Of a stretch of DNA of 64,000 nucleotides, positions 2,219 to 35,977 are shown piece after piece. The notes beneath the pieces were generated by a model, which did no database searches, was not told the DNA's origin, and saw only the letters and a program-made list of their open reading frames with translations. A program made the translations under genes and the position numbers. The stretch covers positions 35,950-99,949 of IMG/VR virus record IMGVR_UViG_3300020735_000006, one strand, 5' to 3'. This DNA is from a virus. Its lineage: Duplodnaviria; Heunggongvirae; Uroviricota; Caudoviricetes. How positions within the stretch are numbered: position 1 is the stretch's first letter; every line of letters begins with the position of its first letter.

Positions 2219-3316
2219 GTGGGGCTTTTTTTTGAACTAAATAGTTGCATGGCAAACGAATATTGCAGGTATCTATCAAATGGTTTTAGATTTCTAGGAG
2301 CCGACTTAACATATCAACCCTGTTGTTGGGTCCCGGCATCTAACCCGATATATTCAGCCGACCAACTCAATCAAGTTAGAATAGACACCACAAAAAAAGT
2401 TTTAGCAAATAAAGAACAATACTGCCACGATTGTATTAACCGAGAATCACGCGGGTTTAACACTAGTATAAGAAATCATAGTTTTAAGTGCATTCCAGAG
2501 GATGCCGAAGATGGCGAAATAATTGATTTATCTATTCAAATTGATACAACGTGCAATGCAGCCTGTGTGATGTGTGGTCCGCATTTTAGTAGCTTATGGC
2601 AAAAGGAAGCAAATCCGAAGGCTATATTATTTGACGCTAGTGACAAATATAAAAATCTAATAGATATATTAGATCTGAGTAAGGTAAAATATCTTAGATT
2701 TTTTGGTGGAGAGCCATTAGTCAACGATAATCATTTAATTATGTTAAATGCAATTCAACACCCCGAACAAGTAAATCTTTTATACTTTACAAACGGTAGT
2801 ATTTTTCCAAACCAAGAAACTATACAAGCATGGAACAAATTTAATAAAGTTTTTATTAAAATTAGTATTGATGCTATTGATGATAGATTTCATTATATAC
2901 GCTGGCCATTAAAATGGAATAAAGTTGAAAATAATGTATATGAAATATGCAAATTGGACTGTGTTGCTTCTGTTATTATTACTAGCACAATAAATCCAAT
3001 GAATATTTTATACTTCGACGAACTAGAATCTTGGTTTACTAATTTAAAAACTAAATTTTTAAAAGTAAATACATTGGATACCAGTATATGCTATGGTACA
3101 TGGGGGTTAGATGCTATTCCTCAACAACTTCGGGAACAAGTAATTAAAAAATACGGAAATGATCATAGAATAGCAAAAATGTTAGATAGTATTCTAACTG
3201 TTGATTCCACAAAATGGAATAAGTTAGTTGCAGAAATGTTACGGCTAGATTTACAAAGGAATCTATCATATACAGAAATTTTCCCAGAAGTAATCTCGAT
3301 CGTAAACAACATATAA
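2219..3316 (+). CDS. Radical SAM domain protein (paralog A), N-terminal Cys-rich extension
   Basis: CNAACVMC is a CxxxCxxC radical-SAM motif. Downstream FFGGEPL is a glycine-rich SAM-binding motif. N-terminal extra cysteines (C..PCC..CHDC). Paralogous to the next ORF, including the shared block IRWPLKWNKVE. Confidence 0.6.
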   Translation: MGLFFELNSCMANEYCRYLSNGFRFLGADLTYQPCCWVPASNPIYSADQLNQVRIDTTKKVLANKEQYCHDCINRESRGFNTSIRNHSFKCIPEDAEDGEIIDLSIQIDTTCNAACVMCGPHFSSLWQKEANPKAILFDASDKYKNLIDILDLSKVKYLRFFGGEPLVNDNHLIMLNAIQHPEQVNLLYFTNGSIFPNQETIQAWNKFNKVFIKISIDAIDDRFHYIRWPLKWNKVENNVYEICKLDCVASVIITSTINPMNILYFDELESWFTNLKTKFLKVNTLDTSICYGTWGLDAIPQQLREQVIKKYGNDHRIAKMLDSILTVDSTKWNKLVAEMLRLDLQRNLSYTEIFPEVISIVNNI

Positions 3317-3322
3317 AATACA

Positions 3323-4504
3323 ATGGCTAATAAACATTGCAGAAACTTGAGTAATCAATATGCTCTTAGTACTACCAAATTTGGAGTAATTGAATATCGA
3401 CCATGTTGCCAATATACTGGCGAGAGAATCGCTATTGACGATCGAGAGAATTTTATCAAAGCCAAGGAATTTTTTAATAACACTAGTGGATGGATTCCTG
3501 GGTGTAACTCTTGCAAACACATGGAACAATCAAATGTACATAGTGTATCGTATAGAACTCAATCATTTACTAGAACAGCATCCGATTATGATCACAACGA
3601 GTGTGTATCGCTTGACATTACATTAGATTTAGAATGTAATGCCGCTTGTATTGTGTGTGGTCCTCATACCAGTAGTACCTGGGCTAAACTCGAAGGTAAG
3701 GATATGCGAAATAATCATGTTGCGTATTCTATGACTAAATTTAATCCGCAGAAAGATTTAGAAAAATATAATAACCAATTTCAAATACAGTTGGATTCTA
3801 GTGATACCGCAGGATCTGATGTGTATTTGCGACAAATTATTAAATACATTCCTGTTGACAAATTAGAGATATTATTGCTAAAAGGTGGCGAGCCGTTTTT
3901 GACCGATTTTCATAAAAAACTTATGACCTATATTATTTCTGTGCATCCCAATCCTAAACAAATTGTTATACGGTACAATACAAATTGTAGCGTATTTCCT
4001 GATGCCGAAGTTTTAGAACTGTGGAAACACTTTAAAGAAATACGGTTAAATTTAAGTTTGGATGCAATAGGTAAGCAGTTTAATTATATCCGTTGGCCAT
4101 TGAAATGGAATAAAGTTGAAAAAATTGTCAAGCGGTTTATCACCGAAACAGATGCTAAGTTTGTAGTACAATGTACAATTAATCCTTTAAATTTACTCTA
4201 TCATGCTGAATTGTGCTTGTGGGCCGAGCAAAACATTCCATTGGACCGAACATATTCTAAATCGGGTGTTATTGCAGTAACCAGGTGTTACGGAAATCTT
4301 GATTTAAGCTATGTTCCACGTGCATTAACAAACGAAAGTATCAACATGTATGGTGAAGATCACGAAATTAATAAAATATTAAAAACATTTACTGTAGAAA
4401 ATCGTAATATAGAATCAATGATTAAATTCCTCGAAAAACATGATAAAATACGTAGCGAAAATTGGCGAGAAACTTTTCCATTAGTTGTTCCGTTTTTAAG
4501 CTAA
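3323..4504 (+). CDS. Radical SAM domain protein (paralog B)
   Basis: CNAACIVC (CxxxCxxC), GGEPFL, and the IRWPLKWNKVE block shared with the previous ORF. N-terminal C..PCC..CNSC. Confidence 0.6.
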   Translation: MANKHCRNLSNQYALSTTKFGVIEYRPCCQYTGERIAIDDRENFIKAKEFFNNTSGWIPGCNSCKHMEQSNVHSVSYRTQSFTRTASDYDHNECVSLDITLDLECNAACIVCGPHTSSTWAKLEGKDMRNNHVAYSMTKFNPQKDLEKYNNQFQIQLDSSDTAGSDVYLRQIIKYIPVDKLEILLLKGGEPFLTDFHKKLMTYIISVHPNPKQIVIRYNTNCSVFPDAEVLELWKHFKEIRLNLSLDAIGKQFNYIRWPLKWNKVEKIVKRFITETDAKFVVQCTINPLNLLYHAELCLWAEQNIPLDRTYSKSGVIAVTRCYGNLDLSYVPRALTNESINMYGEDHEINKILKTFTVENRNIESMIKFLEKHDKIRSENWRETFPLVVPFLS

Positions 4505-4532: not shown

Positions 4533-5618
4533 ATGTATTATTCTGTAGATAACCAAAAATTTACTAATAAATTCTTAGCGGCATCGTATGCTGGAAAAAA
4601 TAATCTAACTTTACATTTTAACATGTATGAGTCGGCTTTTGACAATATAGATTGGTTAAAAGAACCTATAGAAAGTTGGGATCAGTTACTTGATATGCGA
4701 GCTACCCAAATTGCTGCAAAAAATAAACCCATTGTATTAAATTTTAGCGGTGGAACAGACAGCCTAACAATATACGAAGTTTTTAAACGTAATAATATAC
4801 ATATAGACATTATCTATACAAGAGCACGAGTGGGTGTCAACGACCGTAGTAGTTATTCTCCTGTGTACGACTTCCTTAATAAAGGCGTATACGATAAAAC
4901 TACTAAGATTGTGATTAGAGAAGATAATGCAGAATTATTTAACGAACTATATCCCAATGAGGACTGGGTATGGGACACGGCCCAAAGATATCAATTTGCT
5001 ATGGCACAAGAGTCACGCGAATATTCTAGCCGTATATTAGGTACAGACGATTTTATTTCTGTTATTGGACTTGAAAAACCTCGTTTGCATTTTACTGATG
5101 ATGGGGTATACTCTTACCAAGATGATGAAAACTATGTAAGGCCAATGAATGATAATACATTAGATTGTTTTTACATAACTCCAGATTTGCCAGCATTACA
5201 TGTTAAACAATCGTATATGTTATTAAACTATATAAGAAGGTTGGCACCTAAATCTTCATTAAACGAGTTGGAAAAATTTAACACTATTCACCAACCGTTG
5301 AAATTTAACTGGATTAATTATAGCATAAGTGGGTGTGGTAGATATGGCGACTTAAATGATAGTGCCACTCAACATGCAGGTAATGCTTGTTCAAAATTTA
5401 TTATTCCAACAACTGGACAATTTAGTGGTCAAGAGTATCAAGGTCGTGGTAGCGATTGGTATTCTAGTTTGGCCGGCACACAAGCATTTAAAAACTATAC
5501 ACAAGGGTTAACGAATGTAGTAAATGATTCTGCTGGTAAATTTTTACAGTGGGATCCTACTAATTTTTATTCTATTAAGCAATTCAGATCTAAATATTAT
5601 CAATTAAGTTTTATTTAA
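4533..5618 (+). CDS. PP-loop ATP pyrophosphatase, AsnB/WbuX-like sugar amidotransferase candidate
   Basis: NFSGGTDS matches the SGGxDS PP-loop motif. Size ~360 aa is compatible with N-acetyl-sugar amidotransferase or asparagine-synthase C-domain proteins. Confidence 0.5.
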   Translation: MYYSVDNQKFTNKFLAASYAGKNNLTLHFNMYESAFDNIDWLKEPIESWDQLLDMRATQIAAKNKPIVLNFSGGTDSLTIYEVFKRNNIHIDIIYTRARVGVNDRSSYSPVYDFLNKGVYDKTTKIVIREDNAELFNELYPNEDWVWDTAQRYQFAMAQESREYSSRILGTDDFISVIGLEKPRLHFTDDGVYSYQDDENYVRPMNDNTLDCFYITPDLPALHVKQSYMLLNYIRRLAPKSSLNELEKFNTIHQPLKFNWINYSISGCGRYGDLNDSATQHAGNACSKFIIPTTGQFSGQEYQGRGSDWYSSLAGTQAFKNYTQGLTNVVNDSAGKFLQWDPTNFYSIKQFRSKYYQLSFI

Positions 5619-6498
5619 GTTTGGCTTTCCAAAAACTTGCTATTTTCTCATTGAGTACCTGTGTTTCTTCCCTATTGTAATTTACAGGCACGCATAAATC
5701 TTTAGCATACAGATTTTTAATATTCGGCGAGTTAGCATTAGCACGGTGTAAAATATCATACAACTCGGTTACTTTATCCTGTGCAAGATTAGATGGAGCA
5801 AATATCTGGTATGTTGAGGTTAATTCATTAAATCCATTGTATCCTTGTTTAGCAAAGGTATTTAGATCTTTAGCAGTTCCGGTGTAGCCAATTATATTAA
5901 TTCGATCTTGCCACTGTGTTACATTAGTCGGAACAGCTACATTGAGATCCAATGACGCATTACCTAATAGGTCTTGCATCCCGGCGCTAGTACTAGGATA
6001 GCCAATGAAATCTAATTGTGTATTGGGAAGAATTTTTTGTAATTCTTTAGCTACAGTTTCGCCAGCAGTACCAAGAATTACACCAATTGTTAAACGTTTT
6101 TGTTTTTTTAATTCAGCAGTGGATTTATATTTTGTGCTAACTACAGCATACGGCGAACCTATACATTCTACTAACAGTGGTGTAAATTGTCTAGTATCGT
6201 AACTTTCGTTGGGATATAGCATAGGTCTAATAAAAAATCCGCTAGAAGAACTCATTAATGTAATTCCGCGATTGTTTAATGTATGCAAAGCTGCAACTGT
6301 ACCGCCAGCCCCTGGTTTGTTCTCAAATACAAAAACATATTTTGATTGTGATTTATTGGCTTGGTTAGCCAATTCTCTAACCCATTCGGCACCATTGGCA
6401 CTTACAGCGAATGGCCAAACTAATTGTACTGTTTCTTGTGCTGTTGCTGTATTTACTTTTACAAATAAAAATAAGATTGCGGCAATAATTTTTTTCAT
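5611..6498 (-). CDS. Secreted periplasmic binding protein, TctC/Bug-family-like
   Basis: Signal peptide MKKIIAAILFLFVKVNTATAQ. NKPGAGGTVAA motif. Second member of the family in the window. Confidence 0.5.
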   Translation of the reverse strand: MKKIIAAILFLFVKVNTATAQETVQLVWPFAVSANGAEWVRELANQANKSQSKYVFVFENKPGAGGTVAALHTLNNRGITLMSSSSGFFIRPMLYPNESYDTRQFTPLLVECIGSPYAVVSTKYKSTAELKKQKRLTIGVILGTAGETVAKELQKILPNTQLDFIGYPSTSAGMQDLLGNASLDLNVAVPTNVTQWQDRINIIGYTGTAKDLNTFAKQGYNGFNELTSTYQIFAPSNLAQDKVTELYDILHRANANSPNIKNLYAKDLCVPVNYNREETQVLNEKIASFWKAKLK

Positions 6499-7189: not shown

Positions 7190-8341
7190 ATGACAACATC
7201 AACACTTTATGTCCTTTCCAGAGCCCCGAATGATAAATTTACATACAAGTTATATACTGATTTGTTATCTACACTAACCTGCGACTTTGAGGCATACTAT
7301 ATTTGGTCGGATCCTCCTGCTATACTTAAAAGATTTATGAATTATAAGGTTTTTACAAAACCCAATGTTATTATCGGCGTAAAAGATATGTTGGATTTGT
7401 GGTTAGATCATAATTTTTGGGATGGTAAACCTAGTGCCGGGGTAGAACTAATAGATAATATGGCCGCCCGTTTTCCTGAAACAAATTTTATTATTTTCAC
7501 TAGTCTAGAAAATATTAATCTCGAAGTAATAAAATCTACAAACATACAATTCGTACAATGGGGCGGCGACATAGTAAATCAAGCAGACTCATATCGATAT
7601 GTTATGCCTGTATTGGATAAAAATTTTAATTCCGATAAATCATTTATTAGTTTAAACCGGAATCGTCGACAGCACCGGGTAGTAACGTTAAGTTATCTAT
7701 TTGGTAAAGGGTATAACGAGTACGGCGAAATTACATACCTTGGTCAGTATATAGATGCACAGATTAATAATTTACTCGATTATCTACCTTGGAGATTTGA
7801 AGAACATCAAGATGACGCCCGTACTGCTATGTTGTCTGGATATCCAAAATTTTACAATAATAAATCGTTGGCAGCCGATGATTATAATATCTACGACGAA
7901 ATTAACGATAATGTTACAAACTTTAATCAAAATTTAAGAGAAAGATATCAAAATAGTTTTGTTGAGATTGTATCCGAATCGTCTTTTAGTGCCCCAAGTT
8001 ACTTAATAACAGAGAAATGGTTGAATAGTGTATATGGGTGTAATTTTCCTATCTTACTAAGTGGATGTAGTGCAATCGCCCACTTAAGAGAAGTGGGATT
8101 TGATGTGTTTGATGATATTATTGATCATACGTACGATACTATAGCCAATCCGTTCGATCGTATTATCTCGGCAATTGACAACAACAAAAGATTATTAATA
8201 GATGTAGACTATGCCAAGCAGTTATGGGAAGCTAATACACACAGATTTGAAAAGAACATCGAAGTGGCAAAAACTACAATGTATGATTGGTATAAACATC
8301 GTGCTACTGAACAATTTGCCCAATTGACGTGGAATAATTGA
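7190..8341 (+). CDS. Hypothetical protein (possible glycosyltransferase)
   Basis: 383-aa ORF within the sugar-modification region. No motif recognised. Confidence 0.4.
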   Translation: MTTSTLYVLSRAPNDKFTYKLYTDLLSTLTCDFEAYYIWSDPPAILKRFMNYKVFTKPNVIIGVKDMLDLWLDHNFWDGKPSAGVELIDNMAARFPETNFIIFTSLENINLEVIKSTNIQFVQWGGDIVNQADSYRYVMPVLDKNFNSDKSFISLNRNRRQHRVVTLSYLFGKGYNEYGEITYLGQYIDAQINNLLDYLPWRFEEHQDDARTAMLSGYPKFYNNKSLAADDYNIYDEINDNVTNFNQNLRERYQNSFVEIVSESSFSAPSYLITEKWLNSVYGCNFPILLSGCSAIAHLREVGFDVFDDIIDHTYDTIANPFDRIISAIDNNKRLLIDVDYAKQLWEANTHRFEKNIEVAKTTMYDWYKHRATEQFAQLTWNN

Positions 8342-8396
8342 CATATATAGCAATCTGTGTTAAACTTAGTTTTTACAAATCAACCTTAGGAATAAC

Positions 8397-8627
8397 ATGT
8401 CATCAAAATACCATAGTCGTCACGAACAGTTAGACGTAGAGAAATGCGTAAAAAATGCAGGTGGCAATAAGTTTGAATTAATTATTATGGCTGCACAACG
8501 CGGTCGCGAAATCCGTAGTCAAAATCAACACAGTATCCATATGGAACATCATCATGGTGTTGTTACAGCATTATTGGAAATCCAAGGCGGCAAAGTAGAT
8601 CAAGAGTATTTTAAAAAGATTAAGTAA
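8397..8627 (+). CDS. RNA polymerase omega subunit (RpoZ)-like protein
   Basis: NKFELIIMAAQRGREI aligns with the omega core NRFDLVLVAARRARQM. Downstream VTALLEIQGG resembles VIALREIEEG. Length 76 aa. Confidence 0.5.
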   Translation: MSSKYHSRHEQLDVEKCVKNAGGNKFELIIMAAQRGREIRSQNQHSIHMEHHHGVVTALLEIQGGKVDQEYFKKIK

Positions 8628-8690: not shown

Positions 8691-8783
8691 GGAGAGCTGG
8701 CCGAGCGGTCGAAGGCACCCGCCTACTAAGCGGGCATGGATCTTAACAATCCATCTGGGGTTCGAATCCCTAGCTCTCCGCCA
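8691..8783 (+). tRNA. Type II tRNA (Ser-like, long variable arm), apparent anticodon ACU
   Basis: Cloverleaf: acceptor GGAGAGC/GCTCTCC; 3-bp D stem; anticodon stem CCCGC/GCGGG with loop CTACTAA; 21-nt variable arm; T loop TTCGAAT; encoded CCA. Confidence 0.8.
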
Positions 8784-8805: not shown

Positions 8806-9024
8806 TGGCGTGGCGGCCATCTGATACATGTGGGAGTTTGAGTAACAGTCGTAGTACCGGCCCTGTGGCATGAGAATGTAATATCGGGTACTCCCGAGGG
8901 TACAATAAATTTTAAAACTGTGAAAGAGTTGCTAGATTCCATGAAAGAGCCTGTGAAGGCGAGCCTTAATGACTGGGTAGCTCCTGGTTGGCATTGTGGT
9001 CCACTGTCGAAAAGCAGATTTTAG

Positions 9025-9058: not shown

Positions 9059-9132
9059 GCCCCTTTAGTTAAATGGTATAACACTTGATTTGTAATCATG
9101 GATTAGCAGTTCGATTCTGTTAAGGGGCACCA
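9059..9132 (+). tRNA. tRNA-Thr (anticodon UGU)
   Basis: Acceptor GCCCCTT/AAGGGGC; D stem GTTA/TAAC; anticodon loop TTTGTAA; T loop TTCGATT; encoded CCA. Confidence 0.8.
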
Positions 9133-9138
9133 AATTTA

Positions 9139-9438
9139 ATGTCAAAGAAAAAACCCGAACCTATTAAACCAAGAACTACTTGGGGTCAGATGCTAACTAA
9201 AGAAGAATTGTTAGCACTACTAGATAGGATAGAGAAAAAACAACTAGCGAAAAAAGAAATGTCCGAAGAAGCCAAGAAGTCTAAGAATCCTTTTATCAAC
9301 GCCGCCAACGCCGCCAAGGCAGTAGCCGCAAATCCAAAAGTGCCCGGCACTACTACGGCACAAGTGCAAAAAGCTAAATCTACAGCTAAAGTCACTACAA
9401 ACAAACCAGCAAAAAAATCAGCAGGACGTGGTCGTTGA
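9139..9438 (+). CDS. Lys/Ala-rich histone H1-like basic protein
   Basis: 99 aa. C-terminal AKAVAANPKVPGTTTAQVQKAKSTAKVTTNKPAKKSAGRGR is low-complexity KA-rich, as in H1/AlgP-like nucleoid proteins. Confidence 0.5.
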   Translation: MSKKKPEPIKPRTTWGQMLTKEELLALLDRIEKKQLAKKEMSEEAKKSKNPFINAANAAKAVAANPKVPGTTTAQVQKAKSTAKVTTNKPAKKSAGRGR

Positions 9439-9866
9439 AGCCAAAGTTAGCACAAGCCTATATGGACACAGCAAAGATATTTGCTGAACTTAGCCATGCT
9501 AAAAGACTCCATGTGGGTGCTATTATAGTCAAAGATGATCGCATTATATCAATTGGCTACAATGGTATGCCCACGGGTTGGGATAACAACTGCGAAGATG
9601 TTATCCAACATTCCGACGATACAACCACACTAAAAACTAAACCAGAGGTATTGCATGCCGAAACCAACGCCATTGCGAAACTGGCAAAATCAAACGAAAG
9701 TGGGCTTGATGCTAGTTTATTTGTCACTCACGCTCCTTGTATGGATTGTGCCAAACTTATATATCAAAGTGGCATTTCTACTGTTTACTATCGTAATAGT
9801 TATCGTGAGTCTACAGGACTTGATTTCCTTACCAAATCTGGAGTAGAAGTAATTAATTTAGGCTAA
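9435..9866 (+). CDS. cd: dCMP deaminase
   Basis: HAETNAI and PCMDCAKLI are the zinc-binding HAE / PCxxC motifs of the CMP/dCMP deaminase family. ATGA overlap with the previous ORF. Confidence 0.8.
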   Translation: MKPKLAQAYMDTAKIFAELSHAKRLHVGAIIVKDDRIISIGYNGMPTGWDNNCEDVIQHSDDTTTLKTKPEVLHAETNAIAKLAKSNESGLDASLFVTHAPCMDCAKLIYQSGISTVYYRNSYRESTGLDFLTKSGVEVINLG

Positions 9867-9971: not shown

Positions 9972-11141
9972 ATGAAAAAGCTAATTTTAGCTATATTAGC
10001 AGTAACTGGATTTGGTGTAGCACAAGCCCAATCGAGCGTGACCGTATACGGCATCTTGGATGTTGGATACATTGGAAGTAACTACAAGGGAACTGGTACT
10101 TCGGCTACGTCGAAACAAACTACTAGTGCAATTGGCAATAACGGTGAATCTACTTCACGTTTAGGTTTCAAAGGCCAAGAAGATTTAGGTGGCGGAACTT
10201 CTGCTCTCTTTACCTTTGAAACTGGAATCAATCCGGCAGATAGTACATTATCTACATTTAATACACGTCAAGCATTTGTCGGTATTAAACAATCTGGATT
10301 AGGTCAAGTATTAGTAGGTACACAAAATACACCAATCTTTAATGCTGTTCAAATTACCGATCCGGGTAATGCAAACAACATGCTTGGTAATGCTATCTAT
10401 TCCACAAGCCCACAAGCCAACGGCAACGCTGGTACTGCACCGTATGCTGGTACTAGTTCAAGTGCTGGCGCAAGTGATGCATTTACATTGCGTACTTCGA
10501 ACGCAGTTAGTGTAACTTCGGAAAAGTTTGCTGGATTTAGCGGCACAGGTTTGTTAACTCAAAATAATCAAAATAATACACAAACAAGTCCTACCGAAGG
10601 TGGTCAAAATAACCACAGTGGTTGGGGCCTTGGCGTAAATTACGAGTGGCAAAAATTGTATTTGACAGCTAACTATCAAGCTCTTAAGAGTTTACAGTCG
10701 GCGGCTACTTTAACTAGTCCAACTCCAGCTATCTGGAATACAACTAGTGGTGGTACAAATACACAAGACAATCAAACATACGTTGCTGCAACATATGACT
10801 TTGGTATCTTGAAAGCCTATGCTCAATATGTAAACCGCAAGGCTACTGATACATTGAACACAGGTTACTATGCTCAACGTAAAGCTGAACAAATTGGTGT
10901 ACGTGGTTTTATTACTCCAACTATTGAAGCTTGGGTATCTGGCGGTTTAGGTAAAGTAACAGCGTTTGGCCAAGGTCAACCGTCTGCTAATTTCACCGCA
11001 TATCAGTTAGGAAGCAATTACTATCTAAGCAAGCGTACAAACTTGTATGCAATCTTTGGTTCAACACAAACTGCAAGTACATCAACTAATAGTGGTGTAT
11101 CTGGTAACAGTTATGGTTTAGGTGTACGTCATACGTTCTAA
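9972..11141 (+). CDS. Outer-membrane porin (Gram-negative general porin family)
   Basis: Signal peptide MKKLILAILAVTGFGVAQAQ. N-terminal SVTVYGILDVGY. Gly/Thr/Ser/Asn-rich beta-strand composition. C-terminal Phe (…GVRHTF). Confidence 0.7.
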   Translation: MKKLILAILAVTGFGVAQAQSSVTVYGILDVGYIGSNYKGTGTSATSKQTTSAIGNNGESTSRLGFKGQEDLGGGTSALFTFETGINPADSTLSTFNTRQAFVGIKQSGLGQVLVGTQNTPIFNAVQITDPGNANNMLGNAIYSTSPQANGNAGTAPYAGTSSSAGASDAFTLRTSNAVSVTSEKFAGFSGTGLLTQNNQNNTQTSPTEGGQNNHSGWGLGVNYEWQKLYLTANYQALKSLQSAATLTSPTPAIWNTTSGGTNTQDNQTYVAATYDFGILKAYAQYVNRKATDTLNTGYYAQRKAEQIGVRGFITPTIEAWVSGGLGKVTAFGQGQPSANFTAYQLGSNYYLSKRTNLYAIFGSTQTASTSTNSGVSGNSYGLGVRHTF

Positions 11142-16006: not shown

Positions 16007-16310
16007 CATGACACGTGGATGGTTCATCGGCGACTTTGAACCTAGTGTAATGCGTACTCCTTTGTTTGAAGTGGGCGTACTTACACACTTAAAGGGCGAA
16101 GTTTGGCCCGCACACTATCACAAACATGCTACAGAATACAATGTATTATTATCAGGAAGTATGCGTATTGCCGGAGAAGTTATTAGCGTAGGCGATATCT
16201 TTTGGTTTGAGCCCGAGGATGTTGCTGATCCAGAATTTTTAGAAGATTGTAAAGTCTTGTGCGTTAAACGCCCGAGTATAATTGGAGACAAGTATGAAGT
16301 TTTACCGTAA
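15984..16310 (+). CDS. Cupin-domain protein (possible NDP-sugar isomerase/epimerase)
   Basis: HYHKHATEYNVLLSG fits cupin motif 1, G(x)5HxH(x)3-4E(x)6G. Confidence 0.5.
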   Translation: MKTAKLSDMTRGWFIGDFEPSVMRTPLFEVGVLTHLKGEVWPAHYHKHATEYNVLLSGSMRIAGEVISVGDIFWFEPEDVADPEFLEDCKVLCVKRPSIIGDKYEVLP

Positions 16311-17487
16311 CCGTAGTGAAATAGATCCGAACAAATATCTTGTTGCTACTTATGCAATGACGAGTAGCACAAGTCTTGACGATGCTGCTTGGAACTTAGC
16401 TATCGGACAAAGTGTAGGTAATCCTAATGTACGCAACGAGTGGGAAACAGATGAACTGTTTGAAAATCACAGTTGTATTATACTTGCAGACAAAGCAGAG
16501 TTAGCACAAACAAAAGCAGGTACAGTTGAAATTGCGTTCCCTGTGGCAAACACAGATTGGGAATCAGATGGTATTAATCATTTAATTTGTCAGTTAATGG
16601 GTGGACATGTAGACATTGATTGTGTAACAGGATGTAGACTAATTAAACTAGAACTTCCGGAAACTGTAACTAAGCACTTCCTAGGTCCTAAGTTCGGTCT
16701 TACAGGAATTCGAGAATTTACAGGTCAATACAACAAGCCCCTGTTTGGTAGCATTGTTAAACCTAAAATTGGCATTACACCAGAAGTAATGTTAGAGATG
16801 GTTAAACAAATGGTTGACGGTGGTGCCGACTTTATCAAAGAAGATGAGATTATGTCAAACCCTGCGTGTGCTCCATTAGAACGCAGAGTAGAATTAGTTG
16901 CCAACTACCTAGCTAAACAAAGCCGTAAGGTTGTGTTTTGCCATACTATTAACTGTGATCCACATGTATTAGTTGAACGTGTTAAGCGTGTAGCAGAACT
17001 AGGTGGTAATGGAGTACATACAAACGTATTTTCAGGATTAGGTACTTACAACTCTATTCGTAAATTAGACTTGCCACTGTTCTTACACTTCCAGAAGTCT
17101 GGCGACAAACTAATGACTGATGCCAAACATCGTTTTAGTATTGCTTGGCCTGTTGTATGCCAACTTGCTACCTTAATGGGTGTTGACACAATCCAAACAG
17201 GTATGATGGGCGGATATAGTAATGACGATCCTGCAGAGTTAGCAGAAAGCATTAAGGTGTTACGTGAAGGTAATACATTGCCTGTATTAAGCTGTGGATT
17301 CCATCCTGGACTGGTAGAAAAGATTACAGCATTAGCTGGCAATGATTATATGGCCAATGTAGGCGGAGCAGTACACGGGCATCCAGGCGGTACAGTTGCA
17401 GGTGCACGTGCTATGCGTCAAGCAATTGACAAGACTTATGGTCCAGAATATGATGAAGCAATCGCAAAATGGGGATTAGTAAAATGA
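16282..17487 (+). CDS. RuBisCO large-subunit-like protein (form IV RLP)
   Basis: VKPKIGIT aligns with KPKLGLS. GGADFIKEDE aligns with GGLDFTKDDE. LPVLSCGFH…GGAVHGHPGG aligns with LPVASGGIH…GGGTLGHPWG. The HIHRA motif is replaced by HFQKS. Confidence 0.75.
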   Translation: METSMKFYRNRSEIDPNKYLVATYAMTSSTSLDDAAWNLAIGQSVGNPNVRNEWETDELFENHSCIILADKAELAQTKAGTVEIAFPVANTDWESDGINHLICQLMGGHVDIDCVTGCRLIKLELPETVTKHFLGPKFGLTGIREFTGQYNKPLFGSIVKPKIGITPEVMLEMVKQMVDGGADFIKEDEIMSNPACAPLERRVELVANYLAKQSRKVVFCHTINCDPHVLVERVKRVAELGGNGVHTNVFSGLGTYNSIRKLDLPLFLHFQKSGDKLMTDAKHRFSIAWPVVCQLATLMGVDTIQTGMMGGYSNDDPAELAESIKVLREGNTLPVLSCGFHPGLVEKITALAGNDYMANVGGAVHGHPGGTVAGARAMRQAIDKTYGPEYDEAIAKWGLVK

Positions 17488-25100: not shown

Positions 25101-27031
<1,931 letters not shown>

Positions 27032-35207: not shown

Positions 35208-35977
35208 TAGTATGCGGAGATTCGAATGCGGCTGCAAGTGTACATACTCCGGGAAAACACTTCAGTGAATTGCTTGCTGACCAATTAGACTATGAGTTAA
35301 TTAGTTTGGCTCGCGGTGGCATGAGTAATGCTGGTATTTGTTTGCAAATTGAATATGCTATTAATAAGATCAATCCACGCCCAGATTTTATTTTTATATC
35401 ATTAACTGATAGTTCACGCACAGAAATACCATACACCCCAACTAACTCTGCTTTTTTTGATAACAGTACAGATCTATGGAATAAACTGCGCCGCGGATAT
35501 GACATTACTCGCGGATTGGAAAACGTAGTATATGACCATGATAATTATCTAAGTTCTAGAAACTCTTTCTTAAACAAAAACCCAACTATACGATCTGATA
35601 ATGTAGGATCAATGACGTGGGAGGGATTTTATAAAGTGCCAGCGCAACAAAAGGTTGCAATGCAGTATTATATTACAGAATTGTTTGACATGAACTGGAA
35701 AGAACAGCTCGATATTTGGTGTATTAAAAATTGCCTCAGAGATTTAGTCGATTCCGGAATTCCATTTTTAGTTAGACAAGAACACTTTTTAAGAAATTGT
35801 GCTTGGTTGCCCGAGATTAATTGTATTGATAGTAATCTATTAAATTATGGCATCTATTCGCAAGCGAGCTTTAAAGATCCAGCATTTGTAGACCCAGGAT
35901 ATCATACCAAAGAGGAACACCAAGTTGAAATAGCCAACTTATTGTATCCGTATATAGAAAAAATACTACAACAATGA
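35195..35977 (+). CDS. SGNH/GDSL-hydrolase-like protein (paralog 1 of 4)
   Basis: N-terminal VVCGDSNAA (GDS block). ARGGMSN (Gly block). C-terminal DPGYHTKEEH (DxxH-like). Confidence 0.5.
   Translation: MAKLVVCGDSNAAASVHTPGKHFSELLADQLDYELISLARGGMSNAGICLQIEYAINKINPRPDFIFISLTDSSRTEIPYTPTNSAFFDNSTDLWNKLRRGYDITRGLENVVYDHDNYLSSRNSFLNKNPTIRSDNVGSMTWEGFYKVPAQQKVAMQYYITELFDMNWKEQLDIWCIKNCLRDLVDSGIPFLVRQEHFLRNCAWLPEINCIDSNLLNYGIYSQASFKDPAFVDPGYHTKEEHQVEIANLLYPYIEKILQQ

Follow-up and report, generated by a model that had tools for sequence, protein, structure and literature searches.

A 64,000-nucleotide stretch of DNA from a virus of the Caudoviricetes (positions 35,950 to 99,949 of IMG/VR record IMGVR_UViG_3300020735_000006; hereafter the window) carries a gene for a homologue of omega, the smallest, RpoZ/Rpb6-type subunit of bacterial RNA polymerase (RNAP). 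The open reading frame (ORF) occupies positions 8397-8627 of the window on the + strand, runs from an ATG start to a TAA stop and encodes a protein of 76 residues, MSSKYHSRHEQLDVEKCVKNAGGNKFELIIMAAQRGREIRSQNQHSIHMEHHHGVVTALLEIQGGKVDQEYFKKIK. A Shine-Dalgarno-like AGGA, read from the sequence, lies at 8388-8391 (+), 5 nucleotides before the ATG, and AAGGA or AAGGG is kept at the same upstream place in the omega genes of relatives. We think it rather probable that the product is a functional, phage-adapted omega, an early-expressed surrogate that joins the RNAP of the host.

A preliminary description of this DNA, made from the letters alone, had proposed an RpoZ-like protein of 76 residues. The assignment was borne out by curated profile scores, matches to PDB chains, the predicted fold, substitution rates and profile-profile alignment. 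Against the Pfam hidden Markov model RNA_pol_Rpb6 (PF01192), the comparison that the description had recommended, the window omega scored 32.0 bits (E 1.2e-7; gathering cut-off 26), and against the NCBIfam equivalog model TIGR00690 (rpoZ) it scored 30.5 bits (cut-off 23.6). The sequence blocks that the description had set against Escherichia coli omega do align with it, and NRFDLVLVAARRARQM and VIALREIEEG are present in the HMMER alignments. A phmmer search of PDB sequences returned omega chains as 23 of its 25 matches, headed by omega of Pseudomonas aeruginosa (E 1e-4) and followed by those of Vibrio and E. coli. When the profile of the phage omega family was compared with a bacterial omega profile by hhalign, the probability was 98.9% (E 2.3e-17).

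The predicted structure points the same way. AlphaFold models of the window omega reached predicted local distance difference test (pLDDT) scores of 76.5 when built from 32 sequences and 82.2 when built from 95, and both place helices at residues 14-21, 25-42, 54-63 and 69-75. The predicted model has the omega arrangement of a short helix, a long helix, a loop and two further helices. Omega chains ranked first for this fold in two structure searches, and in the Foldseek search of PDB they accounted for 50 of 50 among the matches listed. Profile and modelled-fold comparisons confirm the product of the ORF as a genuine omega homologue, with a similarity far beyond chance. Two other candidate matches were set aside: a Pfam HRCT1 match (18.4 bits, below the cut-off of 27) reflects the His-rich loop of the window omega, and a weak endolysin match in PHROGs, from searches with the window omega and 117 diverse relatives, is noise. 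PHROGs holds no family for the window omega or for any of these 117 relatives.

The phage omegas form a large and strongly constrained family. A profile search of 1.84 billion representatives found 918 proteins at E <= 1e-3, themselves representatives at 50% identity, and 95 at E <= 1e-10, and a word-indexed search found 1,132 clusters at 90% identity (E <= 1e-5). Thirty-two clusters, all metagenomic, are 54-95% identical to the window omega, and RNA_pol_Rpb6 is matched by 108 of the 117 diverse relatives. An omega relative is carried by at least 256 viral contigs of IMG/VR, a count obtained with a single peptide pattern built on a 14-sequence subset; among them is contig 3300042907_001080, with a length of 281,658 bp. 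Pairwise ratios of nonsynonymous to synonymous substitution rates (dN/dS) among phage omegas were 0.05-0.11, and the synonymous sites were saturated or nearly so. The preliminary description had named a lack of conservation in related phages as its possible undoing; what we saw among relatives was strong purifying selection. Because the protein passes curated RpoZ/Rpb6 thresholds and is conserved in related phages, a phage-borne omega homologue is supported.

We also scanned 185,579 bacterial and archaeal species genomes (GTDB) using patterns that favor alphaproteobacterial omegas. In this pattern-limited search the best of 164 matches were ordinary omegas, 31-40% identical to the phage protein; because of the bias in the patterns, the taxonomy of the best matches was not used to assign a host or donor. 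Surroundings were phage-like in the window and in all eight of the related genomic contexts examined, and in none of them does the gene have the chromosomal location of a cellular rpoZ. A tblastn search with the window omega and two divergent relatives against 50,697 GenBank phage records returned nothing, and among these records we found no deposited cultured phage with an omega gene. Read from the sequences, the phage omega gene is not a stray host copy.

Phage and cellular omegas share a core. Like proteobacterial RpoZ (PF01192, TIGR00690), the phage proteins pass the profile thresholds and have the predicted four-helix fold, the helix spacing and the core motifs N-R/K-F-x-L, A-A-x-R-A/G-R and A-L-x-E-I, so that the phage family shows the motif set of cellular omegas (N-R-F-x-L, A-A-x-R-A-R, A-L-x-E-I). 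Phage core positions align with the invariant cellular residues N15, R16, F17, A23, R26, R28, L50, E52 and I53. Frequencies in the diverse family are 70% for N24, 98% for F/Y26, 83% for A32, 89% for R35, 92% for R37, 90% for A58, 97% for L59 and 80% for E61. Five residues, S7, R8, C17, R35 and L59, do not vary among 95 sequences with identities down to 37%; among the 50%-identity representatives S7 is kept at 73% and R8 at 77%.

Outside the core the two kinds of omega differ. Each of the 11 cellular omegas taken from the genome matches has MARVTVEDC at its evident start, at least 113 residues and an acidic tail, whereas phage omegas have 74-77 residues and no acidic C-terminal tail. The phage N terminus follows the pattern M-x(3-6)-S-R-x3-[ILV]-D-x-E-K-C-V: compared with MAR-VTVEDC, it has an extension of 5-6 residues, which brings in the Ser-Arg pair, and an insertion of three residues before [ILV]-D-x-E-K-C-V. 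The window omega begins MSSKYHSRHEQLDVEKCV and lacks the N-terminal Met-Ala-Arg, a start found in only 2 of the 117 diverse relatives. Unlike RpoZ, phage omegas have Leu for the Arg of A-L-R-E-I, and in the close clade they have a His-rich loop, M-E-H-H-H-G, which is nearly invariant there.

These differences may bear on a regulatory site of the enzyme. The N-terminal MAR motif of omega has been associated with binding of guanosine tetraphosphate (ppGpp) (PMC6416229), and at site 1 of the E. coli enzyme the terminal 3'-phosphate of ppGpp touches the main chain of omega Ala2, Arg3 and Val4 (PMC10191844). Site 1 controls elongation and pausing, not the stringent response at initiation (PMC10191844; PMC7676912). 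The preliminary description had suggested that a phage omega tunes ppGpp responsiveness; the missing MAR motif fits this idea without proving it.

The gene lies in a phage tRNA island, unlike rpoZ, which is chromosomal. A sigma-70-type promoter-like site (TTGACA-17 nt-TAAACT with an upstream TG; 10 of 12 consensus positions) at 8338-8366 (+) ends 30 nucleotides upstream of the omega start codon. A TTGACA...TATACT/TATAAT arrangement also stands upstream of omega in three related phage loci (L001, L002 and L008; relatives are numbered in this way throughout), despite the saturated synonymous sites, and we infer a promoter role for the window site. Downstream of omega, at a distance of 63 nucleotides, is a co-oriented tRNA-Ser with anticodon ACT (8691-8783, +), with no terminator-like site between the two genes in the window; tRNA-Ser likewise follows omega in L001 and L008. 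A terminator-like hairpin with a T-rich tail at 8888-8913 (+), recognized by consensus match only, is a possible end of the omega-tRNA transcript. It is followed by a co-oriented tRNA-Thr (TGT; 9059-9132, +).

The association with tRNA genes is general in the family. Of 96 phage loci, 94 have a co-oriented tRNA no more than 500 bp from omega (median distance 13 nucleotides), and every one of the 1,237 tRNA genes in the 96 loci is on the same strand as omega. About ten database omega proteins bear spurious N-terminal extensions that resemble translated tRNA genes. The downstream neighbor of omega in relatives is a dCMP (deoxycytidine monophosphate) deaminase gene, which there follows directly with a 4-nucleotide overlap. 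In the window this gene lies at 9435-9866 (+), and two tRNAs and a 99-residue ORF stand between it and omega.

Several further features of these islands were observed. The tRNA-Ser, 90-93 nucleotides long, was called with ACT and not the usual GCT anticodon (51 bits with the Rfam tRNA model), and it is kept in four related phages: in the window, L001 (10485-10574), L004 (2575-2667) and L008 (11387-11479). The ORF at 9139-9438 of the window encodes a small Lys/Ala-rich protein that ends in K-S-A-G-R-G-R and has no Pfam match. It is kept in the close relatives L001 (12517-12813), L004 (9812-9985) and L008 (13981-14169), directly after tRNA-Thr(TGT) in the window and L001 and after one intervening ORF in L004 and L008; its place with respect to omega is not fixed. 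Near omega in relatives are also genes for a release-factor-like protein (PCRF/RF-1), ribosomal protein S21, HSP20 and ClpS (L091, 14332-14883; L094, 6164-6835, where the release factor is fragmentary; L093, 786-1016 and 1305-2107). The tRNA islands of relatives reach 38 tRNAs per 20 kb.

In several relatives omega is accompanied by genes for SutA-like proteins, assigned by PF20661 homology. These ORFs, homologous to the SutA RNAP-binding domain, have 60-61 residues. In L130 (6227-6409), L119 (1295-1477) and L145 (1353-1535) one of 60 residues starts 11-20 nucleotides after the omega stop, and in L091 (12188-12373), L092 and L096 (3887-4072) a SutA-like ORF is found about 2 kb downstream of omega. 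Two copies pass the Pfam threshold of 29.3 bits, with 30.8 and 32.3 bits, and the remaining ORFs are 53-55% identical to one of these. No SutA-like ORF was found in the window. SutA binds RNAP in Pseudomonas and has been solved in place on the enzyme, in 7f0r and related structures, under the title of a transcription activation complex. The phage omega parallels SutA of P. aeruginosa as a small accessory protein of host RNAP with a phage-carried homologue; SutA itself is unrelated to omega in sequence and fold. Since homologues of omega and SutA occur together in one operon, a role on the host RNAP is the most economical reading.

Judged by its gene content, the window is phage DNA. The preliminary description had taken the carrier to be a phage, and its replication genes, virion-protein matches and helicase affinity confirm this. 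Encoded are UvsW-like and DnaB-like helicases, a primase and both subunits of ribonucleotide reductase, and PHROG matches among the window ORFs include DNA polymerase, exonucleases, homing endonucleases and virion structural proteins (some Pfam and PHROG results for the window cover the most often matched families, one PHROG set comprising 25 of 31). Coding density is 96%, and one strand carries 80 of 92 ORFs. The preliminary description had spoken of a lytic phage; an integrase is absent among the window families and matches listed. Helicases of Agrobacterium phage Atu_ph07 and of the Pseudomonas PA5oct group come closest to that of the window, with 45-46% identity, and XaC1 and Rak2-like jumbo myophages are next. 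Megablast of 25 kb of the window against GenBank phage records gave no DNA-level match. Two metagenomic contigs of 144 kb and 346 kb are syntenic with the window and have in common with it the order omega, dCMP deaminase, sugar-modification cluster and RuBisCO-like gene; the longer one, of 346,606 bp, is GROS21-1 scaffold_30 in ENA ERZ19026183. The carrier is best explained as a large, uncultivated water phage, a myovirus akin to PA5oct and Atu_ph07, whose group relies on the host enzyme for transcription. Its porin (Porin_4), its TctC-family proteins and its proteobacterial-type omega suggest a proteobacterial host, and no finer assignment.

Signs of a phage polymerase were missing from this DNA and from related loci. 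The DFDGD motif was found in no frame of the window, nor did the neighborhoods of 95 other phage omega genes, 0.9 Mb in all, contain it. No RNAP is among the Pfam families and PHROG matches listed for window ORFs, and no sigma factor was found in the window among the families listed. By helicase affinity the carrier does not belong to an RNAP-encoding jumbo-phage lineage of the phiKZ/AR9 type, and PA5oct, among its nearest cultured relatives, is without an RNAP-like gene and cannot grow under rifampicin (PMC7318152). Judged on the window and the 0.9 Mb of loci, the case for a phage without its own RNAP is strong but not closed.

With no phage polymerase apparent, these phages probably insert their own omega into the host enzyme. 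The sigma-70-type promoter-like site in the tRNA island would lead to early transcription by unmodified host RNAP, together with the phage tRNAs, a step that is in part shown. The retained core (GGN-K/R-F-x-L, A-A-x-R-x-R-E-I, A-L-L-E-I) would then bind host beta-prime at the site of host omega, the phage protein filling newly made or omega-free polymerase or exchanging with the omega already there. Least certain is what would follow. Because the N terminus differs, with its extension, invariant Ser-Arg and three-residue insertion, the site-1 ppGpp pocket at the interface of beta-prime and omega may be remodelled, and ppGpp-dependent slowing or other omega-dependent regulation may be altered in nutrient-limited hosts. 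Alternatively, the altered omega surface could be a docking point for phage factors. Binding to host RNAP and its effect are inferred, and the tuning of RNAP assembly and of ppGpp responsiveness that the preliminary description had put forward we keep as hypotheses.

A tentative and, on balance, doubtful extension of the surrogate is a takeover of transcription by subunit replacement in large aquatic phages. The early-made phage omega would displace or pre-empt host omega on beta-prime, and with its remodelled N terminus it would rewire site 1 or offer a phage-specific surface for docking; with the SutA-like proteins of neighboring genes it would keep RNAP productive on the tRNA islands and long operons of the phage in starved, slow-growing hosts.

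Several points weigh against a phage omega that works in this way on the host enzyme. E. coli can do without omega, and loss of rpoZ there causes no more than a modest lag on nutrient downshift (PMC7676912), so the selective benefit of a phage omega is not obvious. The invariant Ser-Arg could rebuild a ppGpp site rather than abolish it. Finally, a phage RNAP could, strictly, still be encoded elsewhere, beyond the window and the related loci.

It is unlikely, in our estimate, that the phage omega is instead an inhibitor or decoy, not a working replacement, which would poison host RNAP and so help to shut off host transcription, or block an omega-dependent host regulator or docking factor. Family features without cellular counterpart, namely the N-terminal K-Y-x-S-R, the M-E-H-H-H-G loop of the close clade and the missing acidic tail, would suit such a role. 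Regulators of phage-like elements can also dock on omega, as does GafA of the Rhodobacter gene transfer agent RcGTA (PMC9638019). However, the nearest cultured relatives rely on the RNAP of the host from the start of infection to its end (PMC7318152), and a phage that poisoned the core enzyme would therefore defeat itself. The core motifs for binding beta-prime are moreover conserved as in a normal subunit, and the adjoining SutA-like genes are homologues of an activator, not of an inhibitor. The GafA system has in common with the phage omega that omega can be the contact by which a phage-derived element controls RNAP; the element there encodes a regulator that uses host omega, whereas here the phage encodes omega itself.

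We regard as very improbable a subunit of the phage's own multisubunit RNAP, encoded outside the 64-kb window. The absence of DFDGD from the window and the 0.9 Mb of related loci, and of RNAP from the families listed, argues against it, as does the affinity of the replication genes to those of PA5oct and Atu_ph07, PA5oct being without RNAP and sensitive to rifampicin (PMC7318152). In addition, the multisubunit RNAPs known from jumbo phages belong to unrelated lineages and contain neither alpha nor omega (PMC7598289). Scarcely credible is a recently captured passenger rpoZ without a role in infection, or a bacterial window with the cell's own gene: the proteobacterial sequence type, with Pseudomonas, Vibrio and E. 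coli omegas as best PDB matches, and the other host-like genes of these phages (porin, TctC, GroEL/GroES, RuBisCO-like) would agree with it, but the best cellular omega found in the pattern-limited search is at most 40% identical, the family is deep, diverse and under low dN/dS with invariant residues of its own, all eight contexts are phage-like with omega inside tRNA arrays, and the window has a high coding density, most of its ORFs on one strand, and virion and replication matches.

Virus-encoded members of the omega/RPB6 superfamily exist in giant eukaryotic viruses, such as C147L of African swine fever virus and RNA polymerase subunit 6 of Marseillevirus, and these RPB6 homologues were weaker structural matches of the phage omega. 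Unlike the phages studied here, in which no beta or beta-prime was found around omega, those viruses encode a whole polymerase, with RPB6 as one of its subunits. Small early phage proteins that reprogram RNAP include AsiA, MotA, gp55 and gp33 of T4, Gp2 of T7, P7 of Xp10, gp39 of P23-45 and phage sigma factors. The phage omega resembles the AsiA/Gp2 type in its presumed purpose, reprogramming of the host polymerase by a small early phage protein. To our knowledge, no core-subunit homologue is among these proteins, which bind from outside as sigma factor, anti-sigma factor or inhibitor; by contrast, the phage omega would be a subunit replacement.

The rest of the window holds other genes of note. 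A RuBisCO large-chain-like gene lies at 16282-17487 (Pfam E 3.6e-36) and is kept in syntenic position in the 346-kb and 144-kb relatives (L004, L008). A chaperonin pair comprises GroEL (Cpn60, E 1.3e-73) at 25409-27031 and a preceding 98-residue ORF at 25101-25397, which is probably the window's Cpn10 match; a phage chaperonin beside an RNAP-assembly subunit is possibly worth a thought. Host-like envelope and transport genes at 195-1139, 5611-6498 (-) and 9972-11141 encode two TctC-family periplasmic receptors and a Gram-negative porin (Porin_4, E 6e-38), and an OmpA-family match is also present among the window ORFs; as a set they hint at a proteobacterial host. Two adjoining genes at 2219-3316 and 3323-4504 resemble radical SAM (S-adenosylmethionine) genes, which recur beside omega and tRNA islands in most relatives (L008, L090, L091, L093, L094 and L095). 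ORF sets drawn mostly from 30000-64000 gave several homing-endonuclease matches (NUMOD3, HNH) and PAAR-motif and Mtd_N-like matches.

The preliminary description knew of no account of a phage omega, and this stands in part. We found no paper that mentions a phage-encoded omega, including in the literature on huge, jumbo and freshwater phages, although with incomplete coverage this is absence of evidence. On the other side, automatic pipelines of the Joint Genome Institute (JGI) and UniProt already label such genes omega, and the UniProt entries A0A6J7WH19 and A0A6J5T9F2 are omega-labelled proteins from 'uncultured Caudovirales phage'. Such genes appear to be unstudied, not undetected.

In our reading the phage omegas are a branch of the omega family that has become adapted to phages and is put to use with another's polymerase. 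Phages are known to redirect host RNAP by means of sigma factors, anti-sigma factors, inhibitors and covalent modification, and we found no report of a phage without its own polymerase that supplies a core-subunit homologue. The function of omega is still debated, with roles as assembly chaperone, as part of ppGpp site 1, in sigma competition and in elongation stability under discussion; large in number, diverse and strongly constrained, phage omegas with their differing N termini are natural variants for probing these roles. If true, subunit replacement would add a new class to the ways of hijacking RNAP and would furnish natural omega variants for probing omega and site 1. The tight linkage with tRNA islands and, in some of the phages, with SutA-like genes suggests a kit that sustains transcription in slow-growing oligotrophic hosts, and such a transcription kit would matter for viral replication in nutrient-poor lakes and seas.
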